NCBI GenBank assembly: GCA_021848625.1
Contig: JAJZUD010000001.1
Span: forward strand, 3,894-67,893
Direction of reading: 5' to 3'
DNA length: 64,000 bases
Source: Pseudomonadota bacterium
GTDB taxonomy: Bacteria > Pseudomonadota > Gammaproteobacteria > Francisellales > CACEW01
Shown here: positions 1 through 23,992 of the stretch, piece after piece
How the letters are laid out: the number at the start of each line of letters is the position of its first letter
Numbering within the stretch: the first letter of the stretch is position 1
Position numbers and translations under genes: made by a program
Notes under the pieces: generated by a model
What the model saw: only the letters and a program-made list of their open reading frames with translations
Told to the model about the DNA's origin: nothing
Databases searched by the model: none

Positions 1-681
1 ACCTTAAATATTGCAGCAAAAAAGTACGGGATTAAATATATTTTCGAGGGTCATTCTTTTAGGACTGAAGGGGTTGCGCCCCTTGGTTGGGCGTACATGG
101 ATGCTAAATACATTCAGAGCGTTTGTAAGCGTTTTGGTCATCGTATAAAATTTAAATCTCTCCCCATGATGTGGTTATCTTCTCAACTGAAGTGGATGTT
201 ATTTAATAGGTTAAAAAAAATTAGACCACTTTGGTATTTGGACTATCAAAAAGAGCCAACTAAAGAATTTTTGACAAAGCAATTTGGCTGGAAATGGTAT
301 GGAGGGCATCATTTAGAAAATCGCACTTGTACTTTCGGTCATACTTATCTTAATCCAAGGCGATTTGATGTGGATCAACGATCGAATGGGTTTTCAGCAG
401 AAGTACGCTCGGGCCAATTAGATAGAGAGTGGGCCATGGCTGAGTTAAGGAAAGCTCCGAAAGCCGAATATGAATCTGTGGATTATTTAAAAAAACGCTT
501 AGGAGTTGATGAAGAGACTTTTTTGGGATTTATGACCCAGTCTAGACGCACTGCTCAAGATTTCAAAACATATAAGCGGACTTTTGAAAGAATGCGTCCT
601 TTCTTTTATTTAATGGCTAAAATGGAGTTAATTCCTTGGACTTTTTATATGAAATATACGGCGAAAAGTGAGAAAAAATGA
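1..681 (+). CDS. N-acetyl sugar amidotransferase (WbpG/LfnA-like), C-terminal part; 5' end is outside the window
   Basis: Frame 1 is open from base 1 (TLNIAAKKYGIKYIFEGHSFRTEGVAPLGWAYMDAKY...), so track ORF 97..681 is only the tail. The pattern GWKWYGGHHLENRTCTFGHTYLNPRRF resembles the C-terminal half of PP-loop sugar amidotransferases found in O-antigen loci. ATGA overlap with the next gene at 678..681. Confidence 0.55.
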   Translation, partial: TLNIAAKKYGIKYIFEGHSFRTEGVAPLGWAYMDAKYIQSVCKRFGHRIKFKSLPMMWLSSQLKWMLFNRLKKIRPLWYLDYQKEPTKEFLTKQFGWKWYGGHHLENRTCTFGHTYLNPRRFDVDQRSNGFSAEVRSGQLDREWAMAELRKAPKAEYESVDYLKKRLGVDEETFLGFMTQSRRTAQDFKTYKRTFERMRPFFYLMAKMELIPWTFYMKYTAKSEKK

Positions 682-1394
682 AGGAATTTTCATTTACCTG
701 GACAAATTTGAAGACTTACATGGAGGCCTATGTGCGGGCGGGCTATCACGTGATTCGGTGTCAGGATTATTTAGATTATAAAAGAAATAATACGAAGCAT
801 AAAATTGTAGTTAATCGAGTTGATGTTGATGTTTCAGTAAAAAAAGTAGAGCGTATTTTGGATATTTTTAGTGCCTTAGATATTAAGGCTACTTTTTTCA
901 TTAGGCTGCATGCCAATGAATATAATGCGTTTTCTTTTGAAAATTATAGAATTTTGAAAGCAGTTCGAGATGCTGGGCATGAGATTGGTTATCATTCAGA
1001 GATTATCGATCAAGCCATGATTTGGCAAGAGAATCCTGCCATCTGCTTGCGACGAGACTTAATACTGTTGAATGAAATGCTGGGTATTAAAACTGTTGGG
1101 GTGGCTAGTCATGGAGGAATGACTGCTCTGAATAATCTTGATTTTTGGAAAAATAATAAGCCCAAAGAATTTGGCTTATTATATGAGGCCTATGATAAAG
1201 AGCCTGAGTTTAATTTGTTTGAAGAGTCATTTTATATCTCTGATTCTTCTTGGATTTATTGGAAAGCTTATCAAAATGGGATCTTGATTCCCAATGACCA
1301 TCGGACGCCTGCTGAACATGCTCAAGATGGGCATCCAGTTATTTATTCTCTGATTCATCCAGAAACTTACTATGATAAACATATTTATGAATAA
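678..1394 (+). CDS. Polysaccharide-deacetylase-like hydrolase (hypothetical)
   Basis: 238 aa soluble protein. The stretch ATFFIRLHANEYN...VRDAGHEIGYHSE...VASHGG is reminiscent of the deacetylase family seen in O-antigen loci. Translationally coupled to both neighbours. Assigned by eye only. Confidence 0.35.
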   Translation: MKEFSFTWTNLKTYMEAYVRAGYHVIRCQDYLDYKRNNTKHKIVVNRVDVDVSVKKVERILDIFSALDIKATFFIRLHANEYNAFSFENYRILKAVRDAGHEIGYHSEIIDQAMIWQENPAICLRRDLILLNEMLGIKTVGVASHGGMTALNNLDFWKNNKPKEFGLLYEAYDKEPEFNLFEESFYISDSSWIYWKAYQNGILIPNDHRTPAEHAQDGHPVIYSLIHPETYYDKHIYE

Positions 1395-2301
1395 GTTAAG
1401 CATAGATACGATGTTAAGCTGCCTTGCAGATTTTGCTATTCATGTGGTGGGTGATAAAACAGGAAAAGAGGTGGTGAGGTTGTCTGCGCCTGATAGAGCA
1501 GATTGTGAAACATTGATTTGGATTGCGTCTGGTAGAGCAGATGCAGAAAAGCTTATTGCGGCCTCAAAAGCTAAGGTTATAATTTGTGATGCTGATGTGA
1601 AAACAGATATTTTTCCAGAAAAATTTTTTATTATAACAGATCAACCCAAACTTGTTTTTTTGCGAATTGGCAACACATTTTTTCAGGAAAAACCAACGCC
1701 AGGTATTCATCCTACTGCAATGATTCATCCTGAAGCAAAAATAGACCCAACGGCTGTTGTTGGCCCTTATGTTTATATTGGTCGTTCAGAAATTGGTGCT
1801 GGGACGGTCTTAGAAGGTCATAACTATGTTTATGATCAGGTTATTCTAGGCAACAATGTAACAATTTTAGCGGGCTGTCACCTGGGAGCGCCAGGCTTGG
1901 GTCATATTTATAACGAAAAAGGTGAGTATGAGAATTTTCCGCATATTGGCCGAGTGATAATAGGAGATGATGTTGAGATTGGAGTGCACAGTTCGGTAGC
2001 AAAAGGGGCATTGGCAGATACAATCATTGGTCAAGGTTGTAAAATTGATTGTCATGTTCAAATTGGTCATAATGTGGTGTTGGAAGAGGATGTATTGGTG
2101 ATGGCGAATAGCATGATTGGTGGTAGTAGTCGTATTAAAAAAAAGGCGGTGATAGCAATGAGCGTAAGTATTGCTGACTATGTGACTATTGGTGAGAGTG
2201 TTCATGTAGGGCCCGGTGCAGTGGTCGTTGCCAATGTGGACAATAATCAAAAAGTATTTGCAAGGCCCGCTATGGTAATGCCAGCGAAGCATAGAAATTA
2301 G
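1372..2301 (+). CDS. LpxD-type left-handed beta-helix N-acyltransferase
   Basis: About 100 aa of non-repeat N-domain is followed by hexapeptide turns (IHPTAMIHPEAKIDPTAVVGPYVYIGRSEIGAGTVLEGHNYV..IGDDVEIGVHSSV..IGQGCKIDCHVQIGHNVVL). This matches the UDP-3-O-acylglucosamine N-acyltransferase architecture, but the gene sits in a glycan locus. Confidence 0.6.
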   Translation: MINIFMNKLSIDTMLSCLADFAIHVVGDKTGKEVVRLSAPDRADCETLIWIASGRADAEKLIAASKAKVIICDADVKTDIFPEKFFIITDQPKLVFLRIGNTFFQEKPTPGIHPTAMIHPEAKIDPTAVVGPYVYIGRSEIGAGTVLEGHNYVYDQVILGNNVTILAGCHLGAPGLGHIYNEKGEYENFPHIGRVIIGDDVEIGVHSSVAKGALADTIIGQGCKIDCHVQIGHNVVLEEDVLVMANSMIGGSSRIKKKAVIAMSVSIADYVTIGESVHVGPGAVVVANVDNNQKVFARPAMVMPAKHRN

Positions 2302-2305
2302 GAGA

Positions 2306-4951
2306 GTGTTAATGCTGAATAAGCAAGGTGATCAGGTTTTTTTAATTGATTCATTAACGGGCCAGGAATATTCTTATGAGGAATTTTATAATGAAGCCAT
2401 CAGTTTGGCCCATTGGCTTGTAAAGCAAGGGTTGAAGGCAGGTAATCGCCTTGCGATTACACTGGATAATTCCGTTTTTTTTGCGAAACTATACTTCGGT
2501 TGCTTATATGCGGGTGTGACAGTAGTGCCCGTAAACCCACAATGGTCAGAGTCTCATACACAATTTGTTTTGACGCATTCAAAAGCTTCTGCTTGGTTGA
2601 TGGACCAAGTACATGCCAAAGCTTATCACTCTTTAGAGCATGCGGTGAAACGTTTGGTTGTTACTTCAGATGTAATTGAAAAAGTAAAAGGGACTGTGCT
2701 TGACTCACCCAGTTTGGAAAATTTAGCGATCATTGTTTATACTTCTGGAACCACGGCAGATCCTAAAGGTGTAATGCATACAGTTGGGAGTTTAGTGAAT
2801 AATGCGCAACTCTTTATTAAAACATTGGGGATTGAAAAGGGACGGCGTTTCCTTAATTATTTACCTATGACTTATTTAGGGGGATACTACAATCTGTTGT
2901 TAATCCCTTATTTAGCAGAGGGCAGCGTGGTGATTGCGCCTGCATTCAATGCGCGTTCAATTCTACAGTTTTGGAAGCCCATTATTCAATATCAGGTTAA
3001 TGTCATTTGGTTTATTCCAACGATTATTTCCATGCTGATGAAATTGGATAAAAATTCAGAGGGTCTTGAATATTGCCATCAAACCAAAATTTTAGGATTG
3101 GTTGGAACGGCGCCACTTAGACCAGAATTAAAGACACAATTTCAGCAACATTATGGCATTGCATTATATGAAAATTATGGCTTGTCAGAGACTTTATTTT
3201 TAACTACTGAATCACCTCTGATTCCAGTTTCCCGCACGAGTGCTGGCTCTATTTTGCCGGGGATAGAATTAAAATTGATGGAACAAGGTGAGATAGGAGT
3301 GAAAACTCCTTACCTCATGCAGGGATATGTTGGCCTCAATGTAGAAGATTTTCTGCAGGGTCAATATTTCATGACGGGGGATGTCGGTGTGCTGACGGAC
3401 GCTGGAGAATTGCGGATTCAAGATCGTAAAAAAGATATGATTATTAAAGGGGGCGTCAATATTAGCCCTGCCAGTATTGAAGCTATAATTTCACAGGTTG
3501 AAGGGGTGGAGTTATGCGCGGTAGTGGGCGTTCAACACGATATTGCTGGTGAGGAAATTATTGGGGTGATTAAGCCACTTTTGGGTTTTGACTTTTCGGT
3601 GTTGAAGAGCAAAATTATCCAATATTGCAGAGAAAAACTAGATACAACGCAACAATTAGATTATTTGTTTGAATTAGAGAACTTTCCTTTTACGGCATCT
3701 GGGAAAATTCAAAAAAATAAAATTAGAGCTTGGGCAGTTGAGAAGCGTAATACAGCTAAGTCAAGTAAGGTCCACCCCTCCATCAAGCCCAATCATTTCT
3801 TTAAAGCCTCGCAAGTTGTTGCGAATATCGATCAGGCAATGTCTATCAAATACAATACCATGGTGTATGAGCGTCAGCAGCGCGGAGAAGAAACCATCGT
3901 CCTCTCGCTTGGCGAAGCTTTTTTTGATATCCCCCTTTTTGACTTTAATGCTTTGCCTATGCCCAAGCTTTACCACTATTGCCATTCTATGGGTATTCCA
4001 GAGTTGCGGCAATGTTTGGCAGATTATTTTCTTTCTGAGTATGATGTCAAGTTTAATCCTGAAACTGAAATTCTGGTAACAGCAGGTTCAAAAATTGCAA
4101 TTTATATGGCAATGCTCGCTATTCTGAATCCGGGCGATGAGGTCTTAATTTATGAGCCAGCCTGGGTAAGTTACACTGAGCAGGTGAAATTATGTTATGG
4201 GGTGCCGGTCGGGGTACCTTATCATGAAAGTGTTTATGATTTTGAGCGGTATATTACCAATCGTACTCGTTTGATTATTATTAACAATCCTAATAATCCC
4301 CGTGGTAGCGTGATGACTTTGGAGGAGCTGTCACATCTCTATCATTTGGCTGAAAAATATAATCTCTTCATTTTGTCTGATGAGGCATATAGTGATTTTG
4401 TACGGGATAAAAGTGAGTTTATTTCACTTGGTAATTTAGATCGGGAGAAAAAACATTCCATTATTGTGAATTCTATTTCCAAAAATTTTGGAATTTCAGG
4501 ATGGCGCATTGGTTACTTGATTGCTAATCCTGCACTGATTCAACAAATTTTAAAGCTGAATCAGCATATGATTACCTGCGCACCTACAGTCTTGTCACTT
4601 TATGTTGCGAAATACTTTTCAGAAATCCTTACGGTTACCAAGCCCCAAATGAAAGAGGTTGTGGAGCGACGTGAACGCTTGCGGCAATATATGGACAAAA
4701 TCGGTTTAAGCTATTTGCCTGGGACTGCGACGTTTTATTTCTTTGTTTCCTTGGGCGATTCGGAATTGGATTCTCAAAAATTTTGCGATCGGCTTCTCAA
4801 AGAAGAGGGTGTTTGTGTAGTACCTGGCGTAGGCTATGGGAAAAGCTGTGACCGTTTTGTAAGGGTTTCTATGTTTGCCGAGGCAGAGCAGCAAGTACAA
4901 AAGGGGCTCGATAAGTTAAAAAAATTAATTAATAAAACGAAGAGGGCTTAA
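2306..4951 (+). CDS. Fusion protein: adenylate-forming acyl/amino-acid ligase (N-terminal, about aa 1-475) plus class-I PLP aminotransferase (C-terminal, about aa 500-881)
   Basis: Ligase motifs: YTSGTTADPKGV, YENYGLSET, FMTGDVG, IQDRKKDMIIKGGVNISPASIE, ASGKIQK. Aminotransferase motifs: NNPNNPRG and SISKNFGISGWRIGY (PLP Lys about K726, codon 4481..4483). One uninterrupted 881-codon frame. GTG at 2306 or ATG at 2312. Confidence 0.75.
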   Translation: MLMLNKQGDQVFLIDSLTGQEYSYEEFYNEAISLAHWLVKQGLKAGNRLAITLDNSVFFAKLYFGCLYAGVTVVPVNPQWSESHTQFVLTHSKASAWLMDQVHAKAYHSLEHAVKRLVVTSDVIEKVKGTVLDSPSLENLAIIVYTSGTTADPKGVMHTVGSLVNNAQLFIKTLGIEKGRRFLNYLPMTYLGGYYNLLLIPYLAEGSVVIAPAFNARSILQFWKPIIQYQVNVIWFIPTIISMLMKLDKNSEGLEYCHQTKILGLVGTAPLRPELKTQFQQHYGIALYENYGLSETLFLTTESPLIPVSRTSAGSILPGIELKLMEQGEIGVKTPYLMQGYVGLNVEDFLQGQYFMTGDVGVLTDAGELRIQDRKKDMIIKGGVNISPASIEAIISQVEGVELCAVVGVQHDIAGEEIIGVIKPLLGFDFSVLKSKIIQYCREKLDTTQQLDYLFELENFPFTASGKIQKNKIRAWAVEKRNTAKSSKVHPSIKPNHFFKASQVVANIDQAMSIKYNTMVYERQQRGEETIVLSLGEAFFDIPLFDFNALPMPKLYHYCHSMGIPELRQCLADYFLSEYDVKFNPETEILVTAGSKIAIYMAMLAILNPGDEVLIYEPAWVSYTEQVKLCYGVPVGVPYHESVYDFERYITNRTRLIIINNPNNPRGSVMTLEELSHLYHLAEKYNLFILSDEAYSDFVRDKSEFISLGNLDREKKHSIIVNSISKNFGISGWRIGYLIANPALIQQILKLNQHMITCAPTVLSLYVAKYFSEILTVTKPQMKEVVERRERLRQYMDKIGLSYLPGTATFYFFVSLGDSELDSQKFCDRLLKEEGVCVVPGVGYGKSCDRFVRVSMFAEAEQQVQKGLDKLKKLINKTKRA

Positions 4952-5935
4952 ATGTTTAATCCGCAGGATGTAGATTTATATCGTAAAGGTGCAGAGACCT
5001 TAGTATTAAATTGTGCGAATTTACAAGCAGGTGAACAGGCTATTTTAATTGCTGATCCAGATACTGCGGCTGCAGGAGCGTTTATCTGTGAGTATGCGGC
5101 ATCAAAGGGTTTGGTGATCGAACAGGTCAATGTGCCTTCTGTAGGGATGCATGGCATGGAACCTCCTGCCGAGGTAGCAGAGAAAATGTGCAAAGCAGAG
5201 GTGATTTTTGGTCTGAGGAAAATGTCGATGGCTCATACCAAAGCTCGGCTCGCCGCTAGTGAAAGGGGGGCGCGTTATTTAAGTTTGCCGGATTATTCTT
5301 TTGCAGTGCTGGCTAGTCCGGCTTTGTATGTGGATTTTAGAGCTTTATCGAAACAGGCTAATCATCTAGCGAATATTTTAACAGCTGGTAAAAAGGCGCA
5401 TTTGACCACGCAGGCAGGAACAGACTTACATCTAGTGCTGGAGGGTCGAGTTGCAAATTCCGCACCAGGTTGGTGTTATGAGAAAGGAATTTTAGCCTCT
5501 CCTCCAGATGCAGAAGTCAATATTCCGCCGGTTGAGCACTTGACAGAAGGAGTGATCGTGGTGGATGGGAGTATTCCTTGCCGTGAATTAGGGCTGCTCT
5601 TGTCACCCTTAAAATTATTTGTGGAGAAAGGTCGCGTCGTCAAAATTGAAGGTGAGAAAGCAGATATTTTGAATCAAATATTTGATCGCTTGAATAATCC
5701 AGCGACTCGTGTGATTGCTGAGTTTGGCATTGGTTTGAATCCTAAAGCAGCCTTAAGTGGAAATATGTTGGAAGATGAGGGTTGCCTCGGGACAGCCCAT
5801 TTAGGGATTGGTTCCAATAAAACCATTGGTGGGCAGAATGATGTCCCTTTTCATCTTGATCATATTGTAAGGCACACTTCGATTAAGATAGACAATCATT
5901 TGTTGATGAAAGATGGGGTTTTACAAGTTGGATGA
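4952..5935 (+). CDS. M29 (aminopeptidase T/PepS)-like protein
   Basis: 327 aa. The C-terminal pattern AEFGIGLNPKAALSGNMLEDEGCLGTAHLGIGSN resembles the M29 signature (..G.N....DEK..GtvH.AlG). Its ATG immediately follows the stop of the fusion gene. Confidence 0.45.
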   Translation: MFNPQDVDLYRKGAETLVLNCANLQAGEQAILIADPDTAAAGAFICEYAASKGLVIEQVNVPSVGMHGMEPPAEVAEKMCKAEVIFGLRKMSMAHTKARLAASERGARYLSLPDYSFAVLASPALYVDFRALSKQANHLANILTAGKKAHLTTQAGTDLHLVLEGRVANSAPGWCYEKGILASPPDAEVNIPPVEHLTEGVIVVDGSIPCRELGLLLSPLKLFVEKGRVVKIEGEKADILNQIFDRLNNPATRVIAEFGIGLNPKAALSGNMLEDEGCLGTAHLGIGSNKTIGGQNDVPFHLDHIVRHTSIKIDNHLLMKDGVLQVG

Positions 5936-6170
5936 TTTATTGGATATATTTAAAGTTTACGCAGTAATTGATGGAATATCTCAGGAATGCCTGTTGGATA
6001 TAGATTATTTGGATGCGAATTTAATGAGCTCAATTGCTTTCGTTTCTTTTGTTGCAGAACTTGAAGAGCGTTGCGGGCTCAATTTAGAGAGTGATATATT
6101 ACAAGATCTGAGATTCCGGAGCCTACGGGGTATTCAATCAATTATGCAAGAACAGGGCTTGGGTAAATGA
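5913..6170 (+). CDS. Acyl/peptidyl carrier protein-like
   Basis: 85 aa. MSSIAFVSFVAELEERCG aligns position-for-position with the ACP core DSLxxVELVxxLEEEFG, placing Ser40 (tca 6030..6032) at the phosphopantetheine site. Confidence 0.5.
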   Translation: MGFYKLDDLLDIFKVYAVIDGISQECLLDIDYLDANLMSSIAFVSFVAELEERCGLNLESDILQDLRFRSLRGIQSIMQEQGLGK

Positions 6171-7411
6171 GAGTTGCCTTAATTAACAATATGAATAACA
6201 ATTTTTTTTCCTTGGCGCGTTATTTACGCGACCGTGGAATCGATGCACACGTGTTTCAATTTGATAGCATTTATAATGGATTTTTGCCTGAAGCAGATAC
6301 CTTCGAAGATGTACAAGAAATTGACTATATCCATTTGATCTCTCAAATTACTTTTCGAGATTTTTTTAATCCCTTTTCTCGAAAAGTAAAGCGAGCGATA
6401 AAAAAATTAAAACAAGAATTAGTGGGTTTTGATGTCGTGATAGGATGTGGTGTCTTAGCTTTTTTTGAAAGGGCAGGCATGCAGCCGCTGGATGTGCTGA
6501 TTCCATACGGTGGGGATGTGTATCAATTAACTGATTTATTTAACTATTCAAGGAAGAAATACTTCCCTTATTCAATGTTAATGCGTTATATCATGAAGTA
6601 TCAGCGTGCTGCCATTCAAAAGGTGCGCTGCACAGTGTCATTCGCTAGCAACGATTTGCATATTGCAGATGCTCTAGCTAATATGGGGAAGCCTTGGATT
6701 GATTGGAATATTCCAATGATTTATCCCATTGCGTGTCCTTCTACTGAAACGCGTTGGGATTTTTTGAAAAATCACGATTTTGTATTATTTAGCCAGATTA
6801 GGCAAACTTGGAAAACAGGCACTGATTATAATGGGAACGACCGCGCCATCGAAGGGTATGCAAAATTTATTAAAGAGCATAATCGTTTCAAAAATCCAGT
6901 ATTTGTGCTATTTGAATATGGGTGTGATGTCAGTGCCTCTAAAGAATTAATTGCAACGCTGGGGATTGAATCTTACATCAAATGGGTGCCGAGTATGAAT
7001 CGTAAATATATTTACTCGGGATTAGATCACGCTGATCTTGTAACTGGTATTTTTAACCCTGAAGTCATTTCTTGTGGGGGAGTGACCTATGAGGCTTTTT
7101 CGCGTTCTGTTCCAGTCATTGGATGCGCAAAGATAGAACGCGGTGGTCGCCATGATCTTCCCCTGCTTCATGCGATGGAACCAGAGGAAATTTGTGCGAT
7201 TCTGACAGATTTTCAAGAGAATCCACTCAAGTATCAGAAGATTGGAAAAAAATCCAAAGCTTGGTTTGATAAAGAAGTGGGGGAGGGTTTAATTGATCGG
7301 TATGTTAAGTTGTTCAGAATATTGAGCGAGGATAAAATGGTAACATTGGATGATCCAAATGGCCCTCTTGCACATCTGAGCTATCAGAATTATGTTAAAA
7401 AACATCTTTAA
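6167..7411 (+). CDS. GT-B fold glycosyltransferase-like protein (putative)
   Basis: 414 aa soluble protein. The N-terminus MRVALINNMNNNFF and the C-terminal GGVTYEAFSRSVPVIG resemble the two Rossmann halves of GT1/GT4 enzymes. Weak assignment. Confidence 0.35.
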   Translation: MRVALINNMNNNFFSLARYLRDRGIDAHVFQFDSIYNGFLPEADTFEDVQEIDYIHLISQITFRDFFNPFSRKVKRAIKKLKQELVGFDVVIGCGVLAFFERAGMQPLDVLIPYGGDVYQLTDLFNYSRKKYFPYSMLMRYIMKYQRAAIQKVRCTVSFASNDLHIADALANMGKPWIDWNIPMIYPIACPSTETRWDFLKNHDFVLFSQIRQTWKTGTDYNGNDRAIEGYAKFIKEHNRFKNPVFVLFEYGCDVSASKELIATLGIESYIKWVPSMNRKYIYSGLDHADLVTGIFNPEVISCGGVTYEAFSRSVPVIGCAKIERGGRHDLPLLHAMEPEEICAILTDFQENPLKYQKIGKKSKAWFDKEVGEGLIDRYVKLFRILSEDKMVTLDDPNGPLAHLSYQNYVKKHL

Positions 7412-9638
7412 GGATAGCGCGATCTATGGTATTGGAACTTTTATTACGAGTTTCATTAATCTCTTGTTTTTGCCGCTTTTGACCCGTCTTCTTACTGTGA
7501 ATGAGTTTGGGGTGATTTCACTCGTTGCATCTTTGACAAGTATTGTTAATTACCTTGTAACGCTCAATATTACTCAATCAACATCACGCTTTGTTGTAAG
7601 AGCAGAAACGATAGAAGAAAAAAGGCTGTATGCCTCAAGTGGTTTTTGGTTTATTTGTCTAGCGTATCTTTTATGTCTTTTAATATTAAGTGGGGGTTTT
7701 CGATTTCTGAGTATTCCATTGGTCGGGGTAGATGATTTTATTTTGTACTTGACAGCGTTATTGTGTATTATTTTTTCTGGAATTTTTACTTATATGAATA
7801 GTCAGTTGCGTTGGCTTTTAAAGCCACATGCTTTTGTGAAGGCTTCAATTTTGATGGTCGTAAGCTCTGTCGTTTTTACTTATGTAAGTATTCGATTTTT
7901 ACAAATGGGTGCAATGGGGTATTTTTTAGGGCTGTGCTTGGGCTATGCTTTGGGAGGGCTATATGCCTATACGCATGTTTACACGCTTTTTTCTTTCCAA
8001 TTTTCGAGAGAGAAACTGAAGCAAATGTTAGTTTTTTCAACGCCTTTGGCTTTGTCGAGTGTCATGAGTTATTTCTATCTGGCGATTGATAAGTGGGCAA
8101 TTCGGATTTTGCTGAATTTTCATGATCTGGGAATTTATGGTGTGGCATCCCGTTTAGCGAGTATTGGTCCTGCTGCGATTGGGGTCTTGTCTTTGGGTTT
8201 GTTGCCGTATATTTATTCTTCTTATCAAAAGCCCGAATTTCCCAAAACTATTTCCTTTTTATTTAGATTAACTTTGTGGGCAGCATTCTCTGGAGCTCTG
8301 TTTTTTTTAGTATTTCAGCACGGCTTAATGTCACTGATTGCTGGAAAAAATTTCTTAGAGGCGGGGGCCTACGTCCCTTTATTATTTATGGGGGTGGTCT
8401 TGACCTCCTTTTATGATTTTACCCCCGGCGCTTGGATTTATGGCAAGACTATTCGCATTGCAGTTGTGAATGTGGTCACTGGGGTTGTGAATACGGCCTT
8501 AAATTTCTTATTGATTCCCCACTTTGGTTTGTGGGGGTCCGTGATCGCAATGCTGATTTCGGGGGGGATTGTTTTTGGTGGTAATGTGTTGATGAGTCAG
8601 TCTTTGTATAAAGTGCCGTATTCTTGGATACGTGTTTTTTTTGCCAGCTTGGTTTTTTGTGGATGCTATACCGTTCTCAATCAGGTAAAATTATCTTGTT
8701 TATCAAAGCTTTTCATTTCACTTTGTGCCATTGGGTTCATGGGAATGATTTTGTTGTTTTCAAAGGATCTATTAATGCGTTTATTAGAATATGCAAAGCG
8801 CACGGAGCAGCGCAAAGTGGCAAAAGAATCGTTAGGCTGGCTGCAAAAGGGAGCGGTTTTGGGCTTGCGCCTGGCTCGTAGCGTTGCCCACCCATTTAAG
8901 ATGAGGGCCCCTTTTCATCAAGTGGCAGCCTATTATTTATGCGAAAGTCTTGTCGTTAAACTGAATCCTTGTGCGAGTGACCATGCGCTGCCCTTACCTG
9001 ATGATTTGATAATCGCCCCAGGGTATTATGTCTATGAAGGCGCAACCTATGACATAAGGTGGTCTGGCGTTTACCGTTTTATGCAGTATGACCAAAAAAA
9101 TGAGCAAAGGGTAGTATATCAACTTGAAGCAGATATCTTGACTTTATTGGCCTCTTTGGCAGCACTGCATAATCATGGAAATGAAGATGATGGAAAAACC
9201 AATTTAAGATGTTATGAGTTGGCGAAGTCCAGAAAGCTTAATTTAAGCTGCCAGGATATGGCCGTTTTTAGCCATTTTATCTTGCAAAAATTAAAATTGG
9301 AATCGCGTGTTGTGGCGACAATGACCCTAGAAGAATTGAATGGCGATGATGGGCATTACATGATTGAAGTCTATTGCCCTATCAGAAAAAAATGGCTTTT
9401 GTGTGACCTTGATTTAGGGTTTTGTTTTAAAAAGCAGGATGAGTTTTTATCTTTGGATGAATTTCTACAGCATGTGTCTGCAGGGAACTATGATTTTTAT
9501 CCTTTGACCCAATACCCTGCTGTGGACATGGGAGGGTTCAGGGCGAAAAATGGCTATCGCTATGATTTTTTGGTGGAAGCCATGTTCGGAGATCTGAAAA
9601 CTTGGTATAAACGTGTGGCAGGTAAACGGCAAGTCTAG
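7392..9638 (+). CDS. Wzx-like MOP-family polysaccharide flippase with an extra C-terminal soluble domain of about 280 aa (transglutaminase-like Cys-His-Asp pattern)
   Basis: The first ~470 aa are consecutive hydrophobic helices typical of polysaccharide biosynthesis/flippase proteins (SAIYGIGTFITSFINLLFLPLLTRLL..). The tail contains LSCQDMAVFSHFIL..(x)..GHYMIEVYCPIRKKWLLCDLD. Confidence 0.65.
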   Translation: MLKNIFKDSAIYGIGTFITSFINLLFLPLLTRLLTVNEFGVISLVASLTSIVNYLVTLNITQSTSRFVVRAETIEEKRLYASSGFWFICLAYLLCLLILSGGFRFLSIPLVGVDDFILYLTALLCIIFSGIFTYMNSQLRWLLKPHAFVKASILMVVSSVVFTYVSIRFLQMGAMGYFLGLCLGYALGGLYAYTHVYTLFSFQFSREKLKQMLVFSTPLALSSVMSYFYLAIDKWAIRILLNFHDLGIYGVASRLASIGPAAIGVLSLGLLPYIYSSYQKPEFPKTISFLFRLTLWAAFSGALFFLVFQHGLMSLIAGKNFLEAGAYVPLLFMGVVLTSFYDFTPGAWIYGKTIRIAVVNVVTGVVNTALNFLLIPHFGLWGSVIAMLISGGIVFGGNVLMSQSLYKVPYSWIRVFFASLVFCGCYTVLNQVKLSCLSKLFISLCAIGFMGMILLFSKDLLMRLLEYAKRTEQRKVAKESLGWLQKGAVLGLRLARSVAHPFKMRAPFHQVAAYYLCESLVVKLNPCASDHALPLPDDLIIAPGYYVYEGATYDIRWSGVYRFMQYDQKNEQRVVYQLEADILTLLASLAALHNHGNEDDGKTNLRCYELAKSRKLNLSCQDMAVFSHFILQKLKLESRVVATMTLEELNGDDGHYMIEVYCPIRKKWLLCDLDLGFCFKKQDEFLSLDEFLQHVSAGNYDFYPLTQYPAVDMGGFRAKNGYRYDFLVEAMFGDLKTWYKRVAGKRQV

Positions 9639-11464
9639 GAGAAATGACGTTCATGCCACATTTGAAACATGAGCAAAACCCAAATATCTTGGTGGTCTGT
9701 AAGTTTGCCAGAAAAAAGATTATGCTTAAGTTGGTTAACATACTGTGAATTTAAAATTCCGCTTTTTTTGAGCCTCACATCATCCAAATACTCATTGACT
9801 AACGGTTTTAGATCACTTTGGAGCCATTGATTAAGGGGGAGGCCAAAGCCTTGTTTTTTGCGTTCAAAAAAAGCGGGTGGAAGGTAGCCTGCAAGAATTT
9901 TTTTGAGAATCTTTTTCTGCTGTTTATAAACCAGAGGCAGGGTTGCAGCATATTCAATGATTTTATGGTCTAGTAATGGCTCACGGCCTTCTAGGCCAAT
10001 AAACAGAGTAGCGCGATCCACCTTGTGAAGAATATCTTCGGGAAGATAAGTTTCAAAGTCAGCAAGCATCATGGTTTCTGCCATGCTTGAGCCCTGTGGC
10101 ACAGCATCACAAAAAATATGCTGCCCAATCAGTTTCTTGACCTCTGTGGGAGTCAGAACAGATGAAGCTGTACGGTAAAGTAAGCTGTCGTCCATCAGTG
10201 GCAGAAGTGCTTGGAGCCGAAGAGATTTTTTGCTGAGCATTGTATTTGGAATAAGTTGAGACAGCCATAACATTGCATGCCGCGCAGGCAATTTTTTTAG
10301 CTTTTGAAATAGGGAGGGGAAACGTGCATAAACTGAATAACCACCAAAAAGCTCATCCCCACCATCCCCAGATAGGGCTACTTTAACAGTTTGTTTTGCA
10401 AGTTTTGCGACAAGGTGTGTGGGGATGGCAGAGGAATCACCAAAGGGCTCATCATACATTTCCGGTAATTGAGGAATAATATCCAGTGCATCTTGTTTGC
10501 TGCAGTAATGTTCCGTATGCACGGTTCCTAAATAGTGTGCTATTTTCTTTGCATGCTCAGCTTCATTGTATTGTTGCTCTTCAAAGCCAATGGTGAAGGT
10601 ATGCAAAGGCGTGGAAGAGTGTTTTTGCAAAATAGCTGTGACGAGGCTGCTATCAATGCCGCCACTCAAAAAGCAGCCGACGGGAACATCTGCAACCATG
10701 CGGAGTTGAAAAGATTCTTGCAGAATGGTTTCGAGTTGTGCAGTTGCTTCTTCCTCGGAGAGATTGGCAGCAGCTTGCACTGTACGGACTGACCAGTATT
10801 GTTTTTCAGTAAAGCTTTGGTCCTTGAGATCTAAGATAACAAAGTGCCCAGGCTTTAGCTTAAAGGTATTTTCAAAAATAGAATGTGGAGCAGAAATATA
10901 ACCCCATTGCATGTAATGTGAGAGGCCTGTTTGGTTGAGGCGCTTTTGAAAACAAGGATGCTGCATCAAAGGGCTCAGTGTACTACCAAAAATAAGGAGG
11001 TCATGTTGGTGGTAATAATAAAGGGGTTTTACGCCTGCGCGATCTCGAAAGAGGTAAATTTTCTGGGCATTACTGTCGTAGAGGCAAAAAGCAAACATGC
11101 CGCGAAATTGTTGCACGGCATCCACTCCCCAGCAATGAAATGCTTTAATGATCACTTCGGTGTCAGAATGAGATTGAAAAGTATAACCTTTTTGCGTAAG
11201 TTGTTTTTGAATTTCCTCAAAATTATAGACTTCTCCATTATAGGTGAGAGATAAGCCTTCAAAATGGTAGGGTTGGTGCCCTGCTTCGGATAAATCAAGA
11301 ATGGAGAGCCGGCTATGACCCAAGCCAATTTGAGCGAAATGGGTGTCCAATAAAGCGTAGCCTTGGTCATCTGGCCCACGACGCTGTATCGTTTGAACCA
11401 TTTTATTAAGCATCTCTGGTGTGCTCTTTTTTTTAAAATCAATAAAACCCGTTATTCCGCACAT
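9635..11464 (-). CDS. asnB: Asparagine synthase (glutamine-hydrolysing) family amidotransferase
   Basis: N-terminal nucleophile MCGITGF, then SGGIDSS PP-loop motif; 609 aa. Stop overlaps the flippase stop region (convergent). Confidence 0.85.
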   Translation of the reverse strand: MCGITGFIDFKKKSTPEMLNKMVQTIQRRGPDDQGYALLDTHFAQIGLGHSRLSILDLSEAGHQPYHFEGLSLTYNGEVYNFEEIQKQLTQKGYTFQSHSDTEVIIKAFHCWGVDAVQQFRGMFAFCLYDSNAQKIYLFRDRAGVKPLYYYHQHDLLIFGSTLSPLMQHPCFQKRLNQTGLSHYMQWGYISAPHSIFENTFKLKPGHFVILDLKDQSFTEKQYWSVRTVQAAANLSEEEATAQLETILQESFQLRMVADVPVGCFLSGGIDSSLVTAILQKHSSTPLHTFTIGFEEQQYNEAEHAKKIAHYLGTVHTEHYCSKQDALDIIPQLPEMYDEPFGDSSAIPTHLVAKLAKQTVKVALSGDGGDELFGGYSVYARFPSLFQKLKKLPARHAMLWLSQLIPNTMLSKKSLRLQALLPLMDDSLLYRTASSVLTPTEVKKLIGQHIFCDAVPQGSSMAETMMLADFETYLPEDILHKVDRATLFIGLEGREPLLDHKIIEYAATLPLVYKQQKKILKKILAGYLPPAFFERKKQGFGLPLNQWLQSDLKPLVNEYLDDVRLKKSGILNSQYVNQLKHNLFSGKLTDHQDIWVLLMFQMWHERHFS

Positions 11465-11476
11465 TGTTGCCTTCCC

Positions 11477-13440: not shown

Positions 13441-14679
13441 ATGTTAATGATCTGCATATTAAGTTTGGCGGCGCTCTGTTTGGGGTTAGCAATCTTACGG
13501 GGATTTACGCCTTTTTATAAAAGAATTTTTCCTGCTGTGATCGTTTGTTGGTTAGGCCATATTTTGGGAACTTTTGCCTATAGTTTGGTCGGTTCAGATT
13601 CGCATTCCTATTATTTTCCATTGGCCACGCCTGGAATCAATCAAACGTTTAAGTCTCCTTTTGGCAGCGGATTTATTTTGAATGTGGTCTGGTATGTGCG
13701 CTTATTTTTAACGGGAGATTCTTTTTTAGCGACTTTGTTCTTTTTCGGCATGTTAGGGTTTTTGGGCAGCATTTTATGGTATTGCCTGTACCTTAAAATA
13801 GCAGATGAGTTAAATATGACTCGGGCTCGCATTTTGGCTGTGCCGGCTTGGGTGATATTGTGTTGGCCTTCCATTTTGTTTTTTACAGCTGGCATGAAGG
13901 ATGCTTGGCCTTTTTTATTTTTGCCTTTATTTTTTATTTGTTTATTTTCGCTAAAGACTTCCACATCTAAGCTATTTTCCTTAGGTTTATTGGTGCTTGT
14001 CGGCTTGATGATATTAATGCCTCGGCCCTACTTGATTTTGATCATTGTGTTTGCATGGTATTTGACTTTTTTAGCGCAAGGAAAAAATCCCCGCACTTAT
14101 TGGGTGAAAATTGGGTTGTCCTTCTTATTTGTATTTATTTTTATTAGCCTGGCACAACACATTGTGAGTATTACAGTAGGAGGAAATATTGATAGGCGTT
14201 TGGGGCATGCTTCCAACTTTGGACAGGTTGCTTCTCAGGCTGTGTTACAGCAGCAGTATTTAAGTGTCGGAACTTCTTTCCCGATGTCCACTAACCCAGC
14301 GTTATTACCTTTGCTATTGCCCTATAGCTTTTTAATGAATTTATGCTTTCCCTTATTTATTTTTTCTAACAATTTACAAAGTGTCTTGCAATCATTTGAA
14401 AATCTTTTCCTCATTTATTTACTTTTCTTTTCATGGAAAAAAAGAAAGATATTTGCAGCGCGTGCAAAGAACAACAGTGCGGTGCGGTTAATGTTTTTTT
14501 ATTTTGTGGTGGGGATGAGCTTTCTCGCATTGATTAACACAAACTTGGGATTATCAACTCGTGAAAAAGCCATGTATTTGCCGGCATTTTTGATTGTTTT
14601 TAGCCTGGCGTATGGATTATATTGCCAGGAAAAGATAGAATATTTACGAAAAAAAGAGGGAAAACGATGCGTAAAATAG
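13441..14679 (+). CDS. Polytopic membrane protein, candidate O-antigen polymerase (Wzy-like)
   Basis: 412 aa, about 10 or more hydrophobic segments, no recognisable catalytic motif. The call rests on position in the glycan locus and the lack of any other polymerase candidate. Confidence 0.3.
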   Translation: MLMICILSLAALCLGLAILRGFTPFYKRIFPAVIVCWLGHILGTFAYSLVGSDSHSYYFPLATPGINQTFKSPFGSGFILNVVWYVRLFLTGDSFLATLFFFGMLGFLGSILWYCLYLKIADELNMTRARILAVPAWVILCWPSILFFTAGMKDAWPFLFLPLFFICLFSLKTSTSKLFSLGLLVLVGLMILMPRPYLILIIVFAWYLTFLAQGKNPRTYWVKIGLSFLFVFIFISLAQHIVSITVGGNIDRRLGHASNFGQVASQAVLQQQYLSVGTSFPMSTNPALLPLLLPYSFLMNLCFPLFIFSNNLQSVLQSFENLFLIYLLFFSWKKRKIFAARAKNNSAVRLMFFYFVVGMSFLALINTNLGLSTREKAMYLPAFLIVFSLAYGLYCQEKIEYLRKKEGKRCVK

Positions 14680-17198: not shown

Positions 17199-17199
17199 A

Positions 17200-23329: not shown

Positions 23330-23992
23330 ATGAAAGTATTGGTAATTGCCCCTCATCCTGATGATGAAATTTTGGGCTGTGGTGCCACGATGGCTCGGTT
23401 TGCAAAAGAAGGCCATGAGGTGTATGTGGCTATTTTAACAAAGGCGGGGCCTCCCCTTTTTTCTGTAGCTCAAGTTGAGCAGGGTAGGAAAGAGGCTCTG
23501 TTGGCACATCATTTGTTAGGAGTGAAGGAGACTTTTTTTCGTGATCTACCCGCTGCAGAGTTAGATAGAGTCGCGCATGCTGAGGTCAACCAAGTGATTG
23601 GAGCCCTGATCAAAGAGATTCAGCCCGAGATGGTTTTTATCCCTTTCATTGGAGATATTCATTTGGATCATCAGTCTATTAGTCTTTCATCTTTGGTGGC
23701 AATGCGCCCCAATCAGTGGGCTTACCCTACCAAGATTTGCGCCTATGAAACCCTTTCCGAAACCAACTGGAATGCACCTTTTCTAACTCCAAGGTTTCAG
23801 CCTAATCTATTCATTGATGTGAGTGAGTTTCTTGCCTTAAAATTACAGGCCTTTAGCCTGCATCAATCACAGGTCAAGGCCTTTCCTCATGAGCGTTCAT
23901 TGAAAGCTTTGGAGGCATTAGCTATTCTAAGAGGCAGTACTGTGCATCGACATGCAGCCGAAGCCTTTGTCGTGATCAGAGAGGTTTTGTAA
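23330..23992 (+). CDS. PIG-L/LmbE family N-acetyl-sugar deacetylase
   Basis: VLVIAPHPDDEILGCG and GDIHLDH motifs. Confidence 0.75.
   Translation: MKVLVIAPHPDDEILGCGATMARFAKEGHEVYVAILTKAGPPLFSVAQVEQGRKEALLAHHLLGVKETFFRDLPAAELDRVAHAEVNQVIGALIKEIQPEMVFIPFIGDIHLDHQSISLSSLVAMRPNQWAYPTKICAYETLSETNWNAPFLTPRFQPNLFIDVSEFLALKLQAFSLHQSQVKAFPHERSLKALEALAILRGSTVHRHAAEAFVVIREVL

Follow-up and report, generated by a model that had tools for sequence, protein, structure and literature searches.

A modular gene cassette in a bacterial surface-glycan locus that may direct carrier-dependent N-acylation of an amino sugar

Our analysis of a 64-kb stretch of DNA (the window) from an uncultured gammaproteobacterium identified a chain of same-strand genes which, in the reading that we hold to be slightly the better bet, constitutes a modular glycan-tailoring cassette for carrier-dependent N-acylation, the acceptor being a nucleotide-activated amino sugar and the acyl group one that derives from an amino acid and is not acetyl. 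The genes at positions 1-9638 overlap or abut in one chain and encode, in order, a WbuX-type protein, a CE4-like protein, an LpxD paralogue, a ligase fused to an aminotransferase (ligase::AT), an M29/NicX-fold protein, an 85-aa carrier, a glycosyltransferase-like (GT-like) protein and a Wzx flippase (Table 1). An ORF and junction check of the window reproduced all of the ORFs and chained junctions of an initial annotation of this DNA, and extended the chain beyond the six genes described there to the WbuX-like gene upstream and the GT-like and Wzx genes downstream. The location in a surface-glycan locus was borne out by domain profile matches across the window, and the profile searches of each ORF suggested at that time gave domain calls in agreement with the original assignments, the carrier being recognized through its family profile.

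Table 1. Features of the window, with coordinates, strand and main evidence.
Feature	Coordinates	Strand	Evidence
WbuX-type N-acetyl-sugar amidotransferase, C-terminal part	1..681	+	TIGR03573, homologues
CE4 (NodB-fold) hydrolase-like protein, 238 aa, candidate N-deacetylase	678..1394	+	PF01522, AlphaFold, Foldseek
LpxD-type left-handed beta-helix N-acyltransferase paralogue, ~300 aa	1372..2301 (start probably 1387)	+	NF002060, TIGR01853, PDB
Adenylating ligase domain (ANL, FadD/MenE/MatB-like) of 881-aa fusion	2306..3751	+	AMP-binding, AMP-binding_C
Class-I (AspAT-like) PLP aminotransferase domain of fusion	3788..4951	+	Aminotran_1_2, 1gd9
M29-aminopeptidase/NicX-fold metalloenzyme, 327 aa	4952..5935	+	PF02073, PF26233, 7cn3
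Carrier protein (DltC/PCP-like), 85 aa, Ser40 predicted phosphopantetheine site	5913..6170	+	Family profile, 2my5
Glycosyltransferase-like (GT-B?) protein, 414 aa	6167..7411	+	Conserved slot, weak GT matches
Wzx-type flippase with extra C-terminal region of ~270 aa	7392..9638	+	Polysacc_synt, TM segments
PIG-L/LmbE-family N-deacetylase, other possible source of the free acceptor amine	23330..23992	+	PF02585, 84 bits

The stop codon of the WbuX-type gene and the start of the CE4-like gene share an ATGA (678-681), as do the carrier stop and the GT-like start (6167-6170). The CE4-like stop at 1394 lies past the annotated LpxD-like start at 1372, and the family alignment suggests that a start at 1387, giving an 8-nt overlap, is more likely. 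The LpxD-like stop (2301) is followed by the GTG start of the ligase gene (2306), the ligase::AT stop (4951) abuts the M29-like start (4952), the M29-like stop (5935) overlaps the carrier start (5913), and the GT-like gene (6167-7411) overlaps the start of the flippase gene at 7392. This arrangement is not due to chance; the same order recurs in other loci.

The core of the proposed cassette comprises the LpxD-like, ligase::AT, M29-like and carrier genes. Judged by its sequence, the 85-aa ORF encodes a carrier protein whose predicted phosphopantetheine site is Ser40, as originally proposed. Its family profile matches DltC (D-alanyl carrier protein) best (E = 7.6e-11), with PCPs and ACPs next, the single sequence matches the PCP 2my5, where Ser40 falls on the active Ser (Ala in 2my6), and Ser40 is invariant in all seven of the same-slot carrier ORFs; a leave-one-out HMM gave 39.5 bits. 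The window carrier alone had no Pfam match, and its single-sequence AlphaFold model, which shows four helices, is of low confidence (pLDDT 62.7) and was uninformative in Foldseek. The carrier is closer to DltC and PCPs than to fatty-acid ACPs.

The LpxD-like protein scores 194 bits against NF002060 and 189.5 bits against TIGR01853, both under cutoff, with LpxA models scoring much lower, and its best PDB matches are LpxD structures, at 109 bits and with its catalytic His in register. In the alignment the family has no C-terminal helical domain and ends straight after the beta-helix. Scores below the equivalog cutoffs, the missing helical extension and the non-lipid-A gene context all agree with the earlier view that this is a paralogue apart from lipid A synthesis; in each genome examined the gene lies in a Wzx-dependent glycan locus. 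The single 881-aa ligase::AT protein combines AMP-binding (212 bits) and Aminotran_1_2 (219.8 bits) domains. Its ligase part also matches AMP-binding_C (36.6 bits), carries the motifs YTSGTTADPKG, GDVG...DRKKD and SGKIQK, and is matched most closely in NCBIfam and the PDB by CoA ligases for fatty acids, o-succinylbenzoate, malonate and oxalate rather than by enzymes that adenylate amino acids. The aminotransferase part, with the PLP-lysine motif SKNFGISGWRIGY, matches the archaeal aspartate aminotransferase model at 269.6 bits, under the cutoff of that model, and PDB entry 1gd9 at 209 bits. Its nearest stand-alone homologues are paired or fused with an ATP-grasp L-amino-acid-ligase-type enzyme, so the aminotransferase probably yields an amino acid for subsequent ligation to an amine. 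No reductase was found among the profile matches of the cassette genes.

The M29-like protein matches PF02073 (Peptidase_M29) at 33.2 bits, has a precomputed PF26233 (NicX) annotation and aligns with NicX (7cn3; E = 8.2e-9), with a Glu at the NicX His position. E188, E257, E276, H283, H301 and D303 are invariant in the family alignment. Natural fusions join this domain to the ligase (M29-like::ligase and ligase::AT::M29-like) and to a PP-binding carrier (M29-like::carrier), and point to the carrier-bound acyl group, not the sugar, as its target; one member carries an HMGL-like 2-oxo-acid lyase/synthase domain in the same chain, suggesting that it helps to build the acid. Downstream of the carrier, the GT-like protein is 64% identical to its counterpart in locus L001 and 50% in L085, and L085, L086 and L091 have in this position a gene for a 411-414 aa protein with weak precomputed GT1/GT4 matches. 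The window protein itself has Glyco_transf_4 (15 bits) as its sole profile match and no PDB sequence match. The flippase matches Polysacc_synt (68 bits) over residues 7-274 and has 11 TM-like segments, every one before residue 450, followed by a C-terminal region with only a weak Transglut_core match (16.8 bits).

The four core genes are found as a group in at least six further loci, including L001, L085, L086, L091 and L093, and the gene order of the chain recurs in L001, L085 and L091, with 44-64% identity for the enzymes and 22-31% for the carrier; the co-occurrence search proposed with the initial annotation thus found the genes co-conserved elsewhere. In a second architecture, the carrier and the ligase, AT and M29-like enzymes, encoded separately or as fusions, are partnered by an AAC(3)-like N-acyltransferase and an aminopeptidase-like protein of the DUF4910 type. 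Lentisphaerae, Parcubacteria, Alphaproteobacteria and Eremiobacterota are among the groups with such sets, which sit in NeuB/PseG-PseH/CMP-transferase (pseudaminic/legionaminic-acid) loci. The relatives all come from uncultured organisms.

The cassette is modular and not the single six-gene unit first envisaged: the four-gene core travels together, but the CE4-like gene goes with WbuX. The WbuX-like frame is open from base 1, the gene being cut by the left edge of the window, and the fragment scores 46.6 bits against TIGR03573 and is 53-58% identical to full-length homologues (379-402 aa) in L001, L085 and L088, which come after HisH/HisF. The CE4 fold of the next protein is confidently predicted from its AlphaFold model (pLDDT 92.4), whose best 27 Foldseek PDB matches are all CE4 enzymes, and its N-terminal half matches PF01522 with 26.6 bits, above the cutoff of 23.1. 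D49, D51, H101, H106, D111, H145 and H235 are invariant in its family alignment. Its TFDD and HSxxH motifs are non-canonical, however, and its nearest structures include a CE4 pseudoenzyme. WbuX is the immediate 5' neighbour of the CE4-like gene in the window and in L001, L085, L088, L090, L091 and L092; the gene 3' of the CE4-like one varies: WbqC in L088, GNAT and WbqC in L089, and an LpxD-like gene lacking the carrier module in L090. One genome has WbuX-CE4 (L092) and a core block (HisF-LpxD-like-ligAT-M29-CP, L093) about 20 kb apart, and the block is nevertheless unbroken. The CE4-like gene is coupled to WbuX/HisH/HisF rather than to the LpxD-like gene.

In our best reading, we infer the chemical steps, their order, the acceptor sugar and the acyl group from domain and carrier identities, modular co-conservation and fusions that were all computed. 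The FadD/MenE-type ligase domain would adenylate a carboxylic acid and load it as a thioester on the phosphopantetheine of carrier Ser40. The fused class-I aminotransferase would supply or create the alpha-amino group, either ahead of loading, on the free 2-oxo acid, or afterwards on the carrier-tethered intermediate, and the M29/NicX-fold enzyme would work on or beside the carrier-bound intermediate in tailoring, editing or deprotection. The LpxD paralogue would then move the acyl group onto a sugar amine freed by the adjacent CE4-fold enzyme or by the PIG-L protein elsewhere in the locus. WbuX (with HisH/HisF) may turn another N-acetyl group into an acetamidino group, and the GT-like protein and Wzx would use, then export, the product. 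As for the acyl group, we would guess, with low confidence, at an L-amino acid that is made from a 2-oxo acid and is acidic or in some other way unusual. Counted against this scheme are the kinship of the ligase to acyl-CoA ligases, the tracking of the CE4-like gene with WbuX and its non-canonical motifs, and the lack of a NeuB or CMP-transferase gene within the window.

The pairing of deacetylase and LpxD-like acyltransferase proposed in the initial annotation is plausible, but the varying partners of the CE4-like gene, the L092/L093 split, its motifs and the PIG-L alternative weaken it. These same observations raise the possibility, tentative but to be taken seriously, that the adjacency of the CE4-like and LpxD-like genes is incidental: carrier-dependent acylation would be kept, the CE4-fold protein would be the hydrolytic part of a WbuX/HisH/HisF acetamidino module, and the amine would come from a DegT aminotransferase or from PIG-L. 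A PIG-L gene lies immediately 5' of the LpxD-like gene in L086, where a weak CE4-like region is found 3' of the WbuX-like gene, and near the module in L001, L091 and L093. On the other hand, a variable acyl-transfer gene right after the CE4-like gene is what a generic deacylate/re-acylate design predicts, and we know of no acetamidino system, including E. coli O145 WbuXYZ and P. aeruginosa WbpG, that requires a CE4 partner. A free amine for the LpxD-like enzyme also demands deacetylation, because N2 is acetylated from UDP-GlcNAc and other amines by hexapeptide transferases.

An improbable variant makes the M29/NicX-fold protein, instead of the CE4-like one, the amide hydrolase, removing either the acceptor N-acetyl group or a protecting residue of the product, as BtrG does in the deprotection step of butirosin biosynthesis. 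It is the sole hydrolase-fold gene common to the LpxD-type and AAC(3)-type architectures, it keeps the M29-like acidic/His set, an Amidohydro_2 metal hydrolase occupies its equivalent place in an ATP-grasp variant, and the aminopeptidase-like Cj1295 offers a precedent (PMC3068675). Yet both architectures hold other deacetylase candidates (CE4 or PIG-L in the LpxD type, DUF4910/M28-like in the AAC(3) type), and the fusions to carrier and ligase favour a carrier-bound acyl target, as the HMGL-like fusion favours an acid-building role. That the LpxD paralogue puts an ordinary (hydroxy)fatty acyl group on the sugar of a lipoglycan or alternative lipid A, with ligase and carrier recycling the fatty acid like an acyl-ACP synthetase, seems to us very unlikely. 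Genuine LpxD enzymes are its best structural and profile matches, long-chain fatty-acid CoA ligases are the nearest models to the ligase, and housekeeping acyl-ACP may be the donor in L090; but the sub-cutoff scores, the absent helical domain, the Wzx-dependent loci and the DltC/PCP-like carrier speak against it, and the obligatory aminotransferase and M29-like fusion or adjacency would be left unexplained. Least probable of all, and barely credible in our view, is that ligase::AT, M29-like protein and carrier produce a free small molecule, an amino acid or something peptide-like, that has nothing to do with the glycan, and lie in the locus by coincidence. A set of carrier, ligase and PLP enzyme is typical of secondary-metabolite pathways, but every locus examined, in several phyla, is a polysaccharide or nonulosonic-acid locus, and the genes adjoin one for an N-acyltransferase from a family that modifies sugars or aminoglycosides.

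Among known systems, rhizobial Nod-factor tailoring shares the logic of the preferred scheme, carrier-dependent N-acylation of an amino sugar, with CE4-fold deacetylation followed by carrier-delivered N-acylation: NodB, a CE4 deacetylase, strips an N-acetyl group and the N-acyltransferase NodA adds a special acyl group from a dedicated carrier, NodF, which works with the ketoacyl synthase NodE (PMC5080398). NodA, unlike the LpxD-type protein, is not a left-handed beta-helix, the acceptor is a chitooligosaccharide and here probably a sugar nucleotide, the fatty acid stems from a ketoacyl synthase and not from a ligase::AT fusion and M29-fold enzyme, and the CE4-like protein of the window differs in its non-canonical motifs. 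Lipid A synthesis by LpxC/LpxD/AcpP likewise deacetylates a UDP-amino sugar before beta-helix N-acylation from ACP, and the best matches and retained catalytic His of the LpxD-like protein fit this parallel; its equivalog scores, missing helical domain and gene context do not, a CE4 or PIG-L candidate stands in place of LpxC, and a DltC/PCP-like carrier with its own loading enzyme in place of AcpP. The carrier is nearest in sequence to DltC, and the Dlt system follows a common plan, with a small carrier charged by a stand-alone adenylating enzyme, DltA, and serving as donor to a polymer of the cell surface. Here, however, the ligase belongs to the FadD/MenE rather than the DltA type, a cytoplasmic LpxD-type acyltransferase replaces DltB/DltD, and the aminotransferase and M29-like enzyme are extra.

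The nearest precedent named in the initial annotation was the V. cholerae O1 tetronate branch, VC0248-VC0252 (wbeK-O/rfbK-O), O-antigen genes for tetronate on the perosamine amine (PMC3441752). That branch, too, serves to make an acyl group other than acetyl and to place it on a sugar amine; the comparison is one of gene content. Alongside an ACP-like protein and an AMP-ligase-like enzyme, it has alcohol-dehydrogenase and reductase-type enzymes, whereas the present cassette has no reductase; to our knowledge the tetronate branch lacks an aminotransferase, M29-like, CE4-like or LpxD-type gene. We judge NodB/NodA/NodF-NodE and the Campylobacter Cj1295 region to be better precedents. In C. jejuni, Cj1295 (DUF2172/DUF4910) is required for di-O-methylglyceroyl pseudaminic acid and was hypothesized to cleave the 5-acetamido group, making room for a new acyl group (PMC3068675). 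This flagellin-glycosylation island (Cj1295, with the N-acetyltransferase Cj1296/7) resembles the AAC(3)-type architecture, which also pairs a DUF4910/DUF2172 protein with an acyltransferase in pseudaminic-acid loci; the window has an LpxD-type transferase and CE4-like protein instead, the Campylobacter acyl group is a methylated glyceroyl and not an amino acyl, and neither a ligase::AT fusion nor an M29-like partner is mentioned in that report (PMC3068675). The literature that we searched holds no description of this gene combination, in line with the early impression that it might be undescribed, and no described member of the carrier-dependent kind with this gene set. The recurrence of the module across many uncultured bacterial phyla offers a testable route to the making of rare sugar decorations.

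Our analysis showed that the gene chain between positions 678 and 6170 is as originally described, with all of its coordinates confirmed by the ORF table and the junction sequences, and that it is longer than was proposed at both ends. A WbuX-type gene, recognised in profile searches by a TIGR03573 match, enters from the left edge of the window with its frame open from base 1 and shares an ATGA overlap (678-681) with the first cassette gene, and the 414-aa GT-like gene that follows the carrier overlaps the Wzx flippase gene at 7392. Profile searches of each ORF reproduced the domain assignments of the initial annotation and returned no match for the 85-aa and 414-aa proteins. They also identified the surroundings, up to about 31 kb, as a surface-polysaccharide locus containing Wzx, two AsnB-like amidotransferases, a UDP-sugar dehydrogenase, glycosyltransferases, three PglC-like transferases, a C-methyltransferase/RmlC/reductase block, and PIG-L and PglD/DegT/CapD-like genes; past rpoD, the window consists of gammaproteobacterial housekeeping genes. 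The DNA was assigned to the metagenome-assembled genome GCA_027358265.1. No NeuB, CMP-transferase, NeuC or HisH/HisF genes occur in the 64-kb window, the upstream part of the locus lying off-window, and the same 64 kb contain no PPTase gene. A nonulosonic acid, which the related loci point to, is therefore no more than a candidate component of the window's glycan. The cassette had no match among plasmids by megablast, and promoter and terminator scans gave only chance-level results.

Features of the glycan locus and of related loci
Feature	Sequence	Position	Strand	Remarks
CE4-like gene	window	678-1394		
LpxD-like gene	window	1372-2301		
Ligase::aminotransferase fusion gene	window	2306-4951		
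M29-like gene	window	4952-5935		
Carrier protein gene	window	5913-6170		
GT-like gene	window	6167-7411		
Wzx-type flippase	window	7392-9638		748 aa vs ~485 aa in related loci
Two tandem AsnB-like glutamine amidotransferases	window	9635-13297	minus	opposite to cassette, inside locus
412-aa ORF	window	13441-14679		no family match; 11 TM-like hydrophobic segments
C-methyltransferase (Methyltransf_13/14), RmlC-like epimerase, reductase block	window	15957-18599		
PglC-like phosphoglycosyl transferase genes (Bac_transf, 189-215 aa)	window	22719-23321, 24939-25586, 30508-31077		three separate genes in one locus
DUF4143/AAA_14 ATPase gene	window	31067-32194	minus	between glycan locus and rpoD, beside third PglC-like gene
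Third architecture: aminotransferase homologue, ATP-grasp ligase-type enzyme, Amidohydro_2, methyltransferases	L005	9989-13109		beside glycosyltransferases
Third architecture, same content	L006	9082-12226		beside glycosyltransferases
Third architecture, same content	L007	8612-11734		beside glycosyltransferases

Several neighbours of the cassette deserve mention in their own right. The Wzx-type flippase has 11 TM-like segments, every one of which ends before residue 450, and its C-terminal part (8829-9635) is an extra soluble region of about 270 aa with a weak transglutaminase-core match (16.8 bits, below cutoff). Three small PglC-like genes in a single locus suggest that at least two initiating sugars, or at least two glycans, are involved. 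The C-methyltransferase block predicts, from its gene content, a C-branched 6-deoxy sugar; together with GT and AsnB genes it is found in synteny in GCA_021325575.1, which is related to the source genome (L092, 4209-6863). Nearly every related locus has AsnB-like genes alongside the module (L001, L085, L088, L089, L091 and L093), and their products might amidate a uronic acid or the free carboxylate of the acyl group. The 412-aa ORF is a candidate Wzy-type polymerase, and the DUF4143/AAA_14 gene may represent either the edge of the locus or a mobile insertion.

The proposal that the 85-aa ORF encodes a carrier protein with a phosphopantetheine Ser at position 40 was borne out by alignment, profile, PDB and HMM evidence, and we accept it, from its sequence, as a phosphopantetheine carrier with Ser40 as the predicted attachment site. 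A word-indexed search of a large protein database detected no close relatives, and relatives were gathered by gene position, as small ORFs that neighbour the M29-like or the ligase gene at six further loci. The resulting seven-sequence alignment has only Met1, Ser40 and Glu51 as invariant residues. The family profile hits the D-alanyl carrier protein DltC (E = 7.6e-11), with Ser40 aligned on its 'LDS' motif, followed by peptidyl and acyl carrier proteins, and the window sequence alone finds the stand-alone PCP 2my5 (E = 0.0058), where Ser40 falls on the Ser replaced by Ala in the mutant entry 2my6. When the six other sequences were made into an HMM, it gave the window carrier ORF 39.5 bits and scored no other ORF of the window. 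The L003 orthologue passes the Pfam PP-binding (PF00550) cutoff (26.6 vs 20.8); the window carrier by itself has no Pfam match. A single-sequence AlphaFold model shows four helices, one of them starting at residue 41, with a pLDDT of only 62.7, and Foldseek returned no meaningful match with this low-confidence model.

The LpxD-like protein is nearest to genuine LpxD structures in a PDB search (109 bits), and LpxA models score far lower on it than LpxD models, yet it falls below the LpxD equivalog cutoffs (TIGR01853, 189.5 vs 242.5 bits; NF002060, 194.2 vs 207). It has the left-handed beta-helix, and its 'HN' motif includes the catalytic His (QIGHNV, compared to MIAHNV in P. aeruginosa LpxD), a residue present in all seven LpxD-like orthologues. 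The uridine-binding domain PF04613 scores only 18.3 bits on residues 33-99 (cutoff 30.8), with weak precomputed matches in the orthologues. The C-terminal helical extension, which in the LpxD-ACP structures is the ACP-recognition domain of E. coli LpxD, is absent: the alignment to the P. aeruginosa enzyme ends at residue 289 of 309 in the query and 314 of 368 in the chain, and each of the seven orthologues stops about 15 residues or less past the last beta-helix coil. Every examined copy of the gene is part of a Wzx-type glycan locus, and no second lpxD was found within the 64-kb window.

The 881-aa fusion protein combines an AMP-binding domain (PF00501, 212.2 bits) and its C-terminal domain (36.6 bits) with an Aminotran_1_2 domain (219.8 bits). 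The ligase domain carries the ANL motifs YTSGTTADPKG, GD...DRKKD and SGKIQK and is closest to fatty-acyl-, o-succinylbenzoate-, malonyl- and oxalyl-CoA ligases, not to amino-acid-activating enzymes. The class-I aminotransferase domain (PF00155) contains the PLP-binding Lys motif SKNFGISGWRIGY and is AspAT-like, with AspAT structures as its top PDB matches. In a scan of one genome per species, the full-length fusion was also found in an uncultured gammaproteobacterium (L001) and in one MAG each of Lentisphaerae, Parcubacteria and Elusimicrobia, and a split ligase/aminotransferase version in an alphaproteobacterium. The nearest stand-alone homologues of the aminotransferase (55-60% identity) have an ATP-grasp enzyme of the L-amino-acid-ligase type as a partner or as a fused domain, the latter in L006, where the two form a single 783-aa protein.

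The M29-like protein scores 33.2 bits with PF02073 (cutoff 27), which it covers only in part, and precomputed Pfam matches place it in the NicX family (PF26233); its sole PDB match is NicX 7cn3 (E = 8.2e-9). The NicX structure has a His/His/Asp iron site. The His of the NicX 'SHIG' motif is replaced by Glu257 ('AEFG') in the M29-like protein, while H301 and D303 are retained. The invariant residues are E188, E257, E276, H283, H301 and D303, and with M29 metal ligands presumed to be Glu/Glu/His/His/Asp, this set looks more like an M29 metallohydrolase site than like that of NicX. The family comprises about 1,056 clusters at 50% identity (E <= 1e-30) and includes natural fusions of four kinds: M29-like::ligase, HMGL-like::M29-like, M29-like::PP-binding carrier and ligase::aminotransferase::M29-like (1,224 aa). 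These M29/NicX-fold fusion proteins are P0245, P0250, P0259 and P0269 in our set, and the HMGL-like partner is a 2-oxo-acid lyase/synthase domain. In two AAC(3)-type loci, a 262-274 aa protein with weak glyoxalase/VOC-fold matches adjoins the M29-like and ligase genes (L002, 11869-12657; L087, 12555-13379); VOC-fold enzymes include thioester epimerases.

The first gene of the chain encodes a member of a large unnamed family (>1,154 members at ~60% identity, across phyla) that matches PF01522 with 26.6 bits over its N-terminal half only. A model built from the family alignment (pLDDT 92.4) had CE4 proteins for all of its top 27 PDB matches in Foldseek (probability 1.00, E 1e-5 to 2e-3, TM 0.35-0.5), and the CE4 pseudoenzyme BA3943 is among the nearest structures. 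Residues D49, D51, H101, H106, D111, H145 and H235 are invariant. Compared to TFDD and H(S/T)xxH, the canonical CE4 catalytic motifs, those found here (R47-V-D49-x-D51 and H106-S-E-I-I-D111, with H101 upstream) are non-canonical, though invariant. From its modelled fold, the protein is a candidate sugar N-deacetylase.

The six genes had been proposed to form one co-conserved cassette. All of them do recur elsewhere, but the neighbourhoods of M29-like and CE4-like homologues resolve them into three recurring units. The first is HisH-HisF-WbuX-CE4-like, with the CE4-like gene directly behind WbuX in the window and in L001, L085, L088, L090, L091 and L092. What follows the CE4-like gene is WbqC (L088), GNAT and WbqC (L089), an LpxD-like gene without the carrier module (L090), or the second unit, LpxD-like - ligase::aminotransferase - M29-like - carrier, which is present in the window, L001, L085, L086, L091 and L093. 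In L093 this second unit lies directly behind HisF, with WbuX-CE4 about 20 kb away on the same contig (L092). Ten contigs were suggested to hold both CE4-like and M29-like genes, and L092/L093 shows that genes sharing a contig are not always adjacent. The third unit is the 414-aa GT-like gene, found behind the carrier at five loci and, in L089, in the absence of the second unit. A different carrier module was seen in the glycan locus of a related genome (L092, 13579-16779); it is made up of a 591-aa protein that includes a NIF/HAD phosphatase-like region, a PP-binding protein of 80 aa and a fusion of a MaoC dehydratase with a ketoreductase, and it suggests that such loci make carrier-borne acyl groups of several kinds. 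The aminotransferase, M29-like, ligase and carrier genes are also found in other phyla, either fused or split. Their neighbours in these AAC(3)-type loci are a methyltransferase and an AAC(3)-like N-acyltransferase, the latter frequently in fusion with a DUF4910/DUF2172/M28-like domain, and the loci hold NeuB, PseG-PseH and CMP-transferase genes as well. L085 has NeuB and CBS-nucleotidyltransferase genes 9 kb downstream.

The initial annotation proposed that a sugar is deacetylated by the CE4-like protein and then re-acylated by the LpxD-like protein. The general logic is plausible, since a CE4-fold gene and PIG-L genes adjoin the transferase, the acyl-transfer gene behind the CE4-like gene varies between genomes, a Cj1295-family aminopeptidase-like protein is present in AAC(3)-type loci, and NodB/NodA/ACP provide a precedent with the same logic (PMC5080398). 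The role proposed for a Cj1295-family protein is cleavage of pseudaminic acid at its 5-acetamido group, enabling the addition of another acyl group (PMC3068675). The specific pairing of the CE4-like and LpxD-like proteins is only a candidate, however, because of the tight coupling of WbuX to the CE4-like gene and the non-canonical CE4 motifs. Immediately upstream of its LpxD-like gene, L086 has a gene for a PIG-L deacetylase. A reading in which PIG-L replaces the CE4-like protein there was ruled out by a weak CE4-like region in a 763-aa protein encoded after a WbuX-like gene, which makes PIG-L an additional deacetylase in this locus. Directly behind the GT-like gene, L001 (15259-17616) and L091 (16812-19127) have genes for a PIG-L deacetylase, an ATP-grasp ligase of the PylC-like kind and a HAD hydrolase, and this set may represent a second 'deacetylate then ligate' pair of the locus.

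These data, which are drawn from sequence, support a dedicated system in which an acyl thioester would be built on the DltC-like carrier and then moved to a sugar amine, the transferase being a predicted LpxD paralogue in the window and an AAC(3)-like enzyme elsewhere. The association of one aminotransferase subfamily with two unrelated carboxylate-activating systems argues that the aminotransferase supplies an amino acid that is later ligated to an amine, and the fusions of M29-like domains to ligase, aminotransferase and carrier suggest that the M29-like protein acts on a carrier-bound intermediate. The resemblance of the ligase to acyl- and dicarboxylate-CoA ligases, and of the aminotransferase to AspAT, leads to the idea, attractive but unproven, that loading and amination of a 2-oxo (di)carboxylic acid yield an omega-linked acidic amino-acyl group. 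In its full form, on-carrier transamination, the ligase would put a 2-oxo (di)carboxylic acid on the carrier, the fused AspAT-type class-I aminotransferase would transaminate the tethered acid, the M29-fold enzyme would next process the tethered amino acyl group, and the DltC-like carrier would be read by an LpxD paralogue that has lost the ACP-recognition helix. We consider this complete sequence of steps rather unlikely as it stands.

The V. cholerae O1 tetronate branch (WbeK-O) presumably consists of an ACP, a ligase, an alcohol dehydrogenase and reductase-type enzymes. By gene content, the cassette differs from it in having no dehydrogenase or reductase domain between 678 and 7411 and in having an aminotransferase, an M29-like and a CE4-like protein instead. 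The cassette would function like this branch (PMC3441752), like NodB/NodA/NodF-NodE and like lipid A LpxC/LpxD/ACP, but is a member of none of these systems, since its LpxD-like protein fails the equivalog cutoffs and has no C-terminal domain, and reductase genes are missing. The earlier suggestion that the gene combination is undescribed has held: literature searches found no ligase::aminotransferase/M29-fold/carrier module in glycan biosynthesis.

Serotype, phage recognition and immune evasion are all shaped by the uncommon N-acyl groups that amino sugars and pseudaminic and legionaminic acids can carry. The enzymes that modify nonulosonic acids are poorly known (PMC5378307). The module described here is widespread, being found in several phyla and in each examined case inside a glycan locus, and no member has been characterised; with four or five proteins, it is compact and directly testable in vitro. 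The same aminotransferase is found combined with transferases that are unrelated to each other (LpxD-type or AAC(3)-type) and with activation chemistries that are likewise unrelated (ligase and carrier, or ATP-grasp), which is useful for metagenome annotation and glycoengineering. To our knowledge, no genes have been assigned to the aspartyl, glutamyl and N-methyl-glutamyl decorations of sugars. On-carrier transamination, if true, would explain decorations such as these and provide a biosynthetic origin for the omega-linked acidic amino-acyl groups on bacterial amino sugars and nonulosonic acids.
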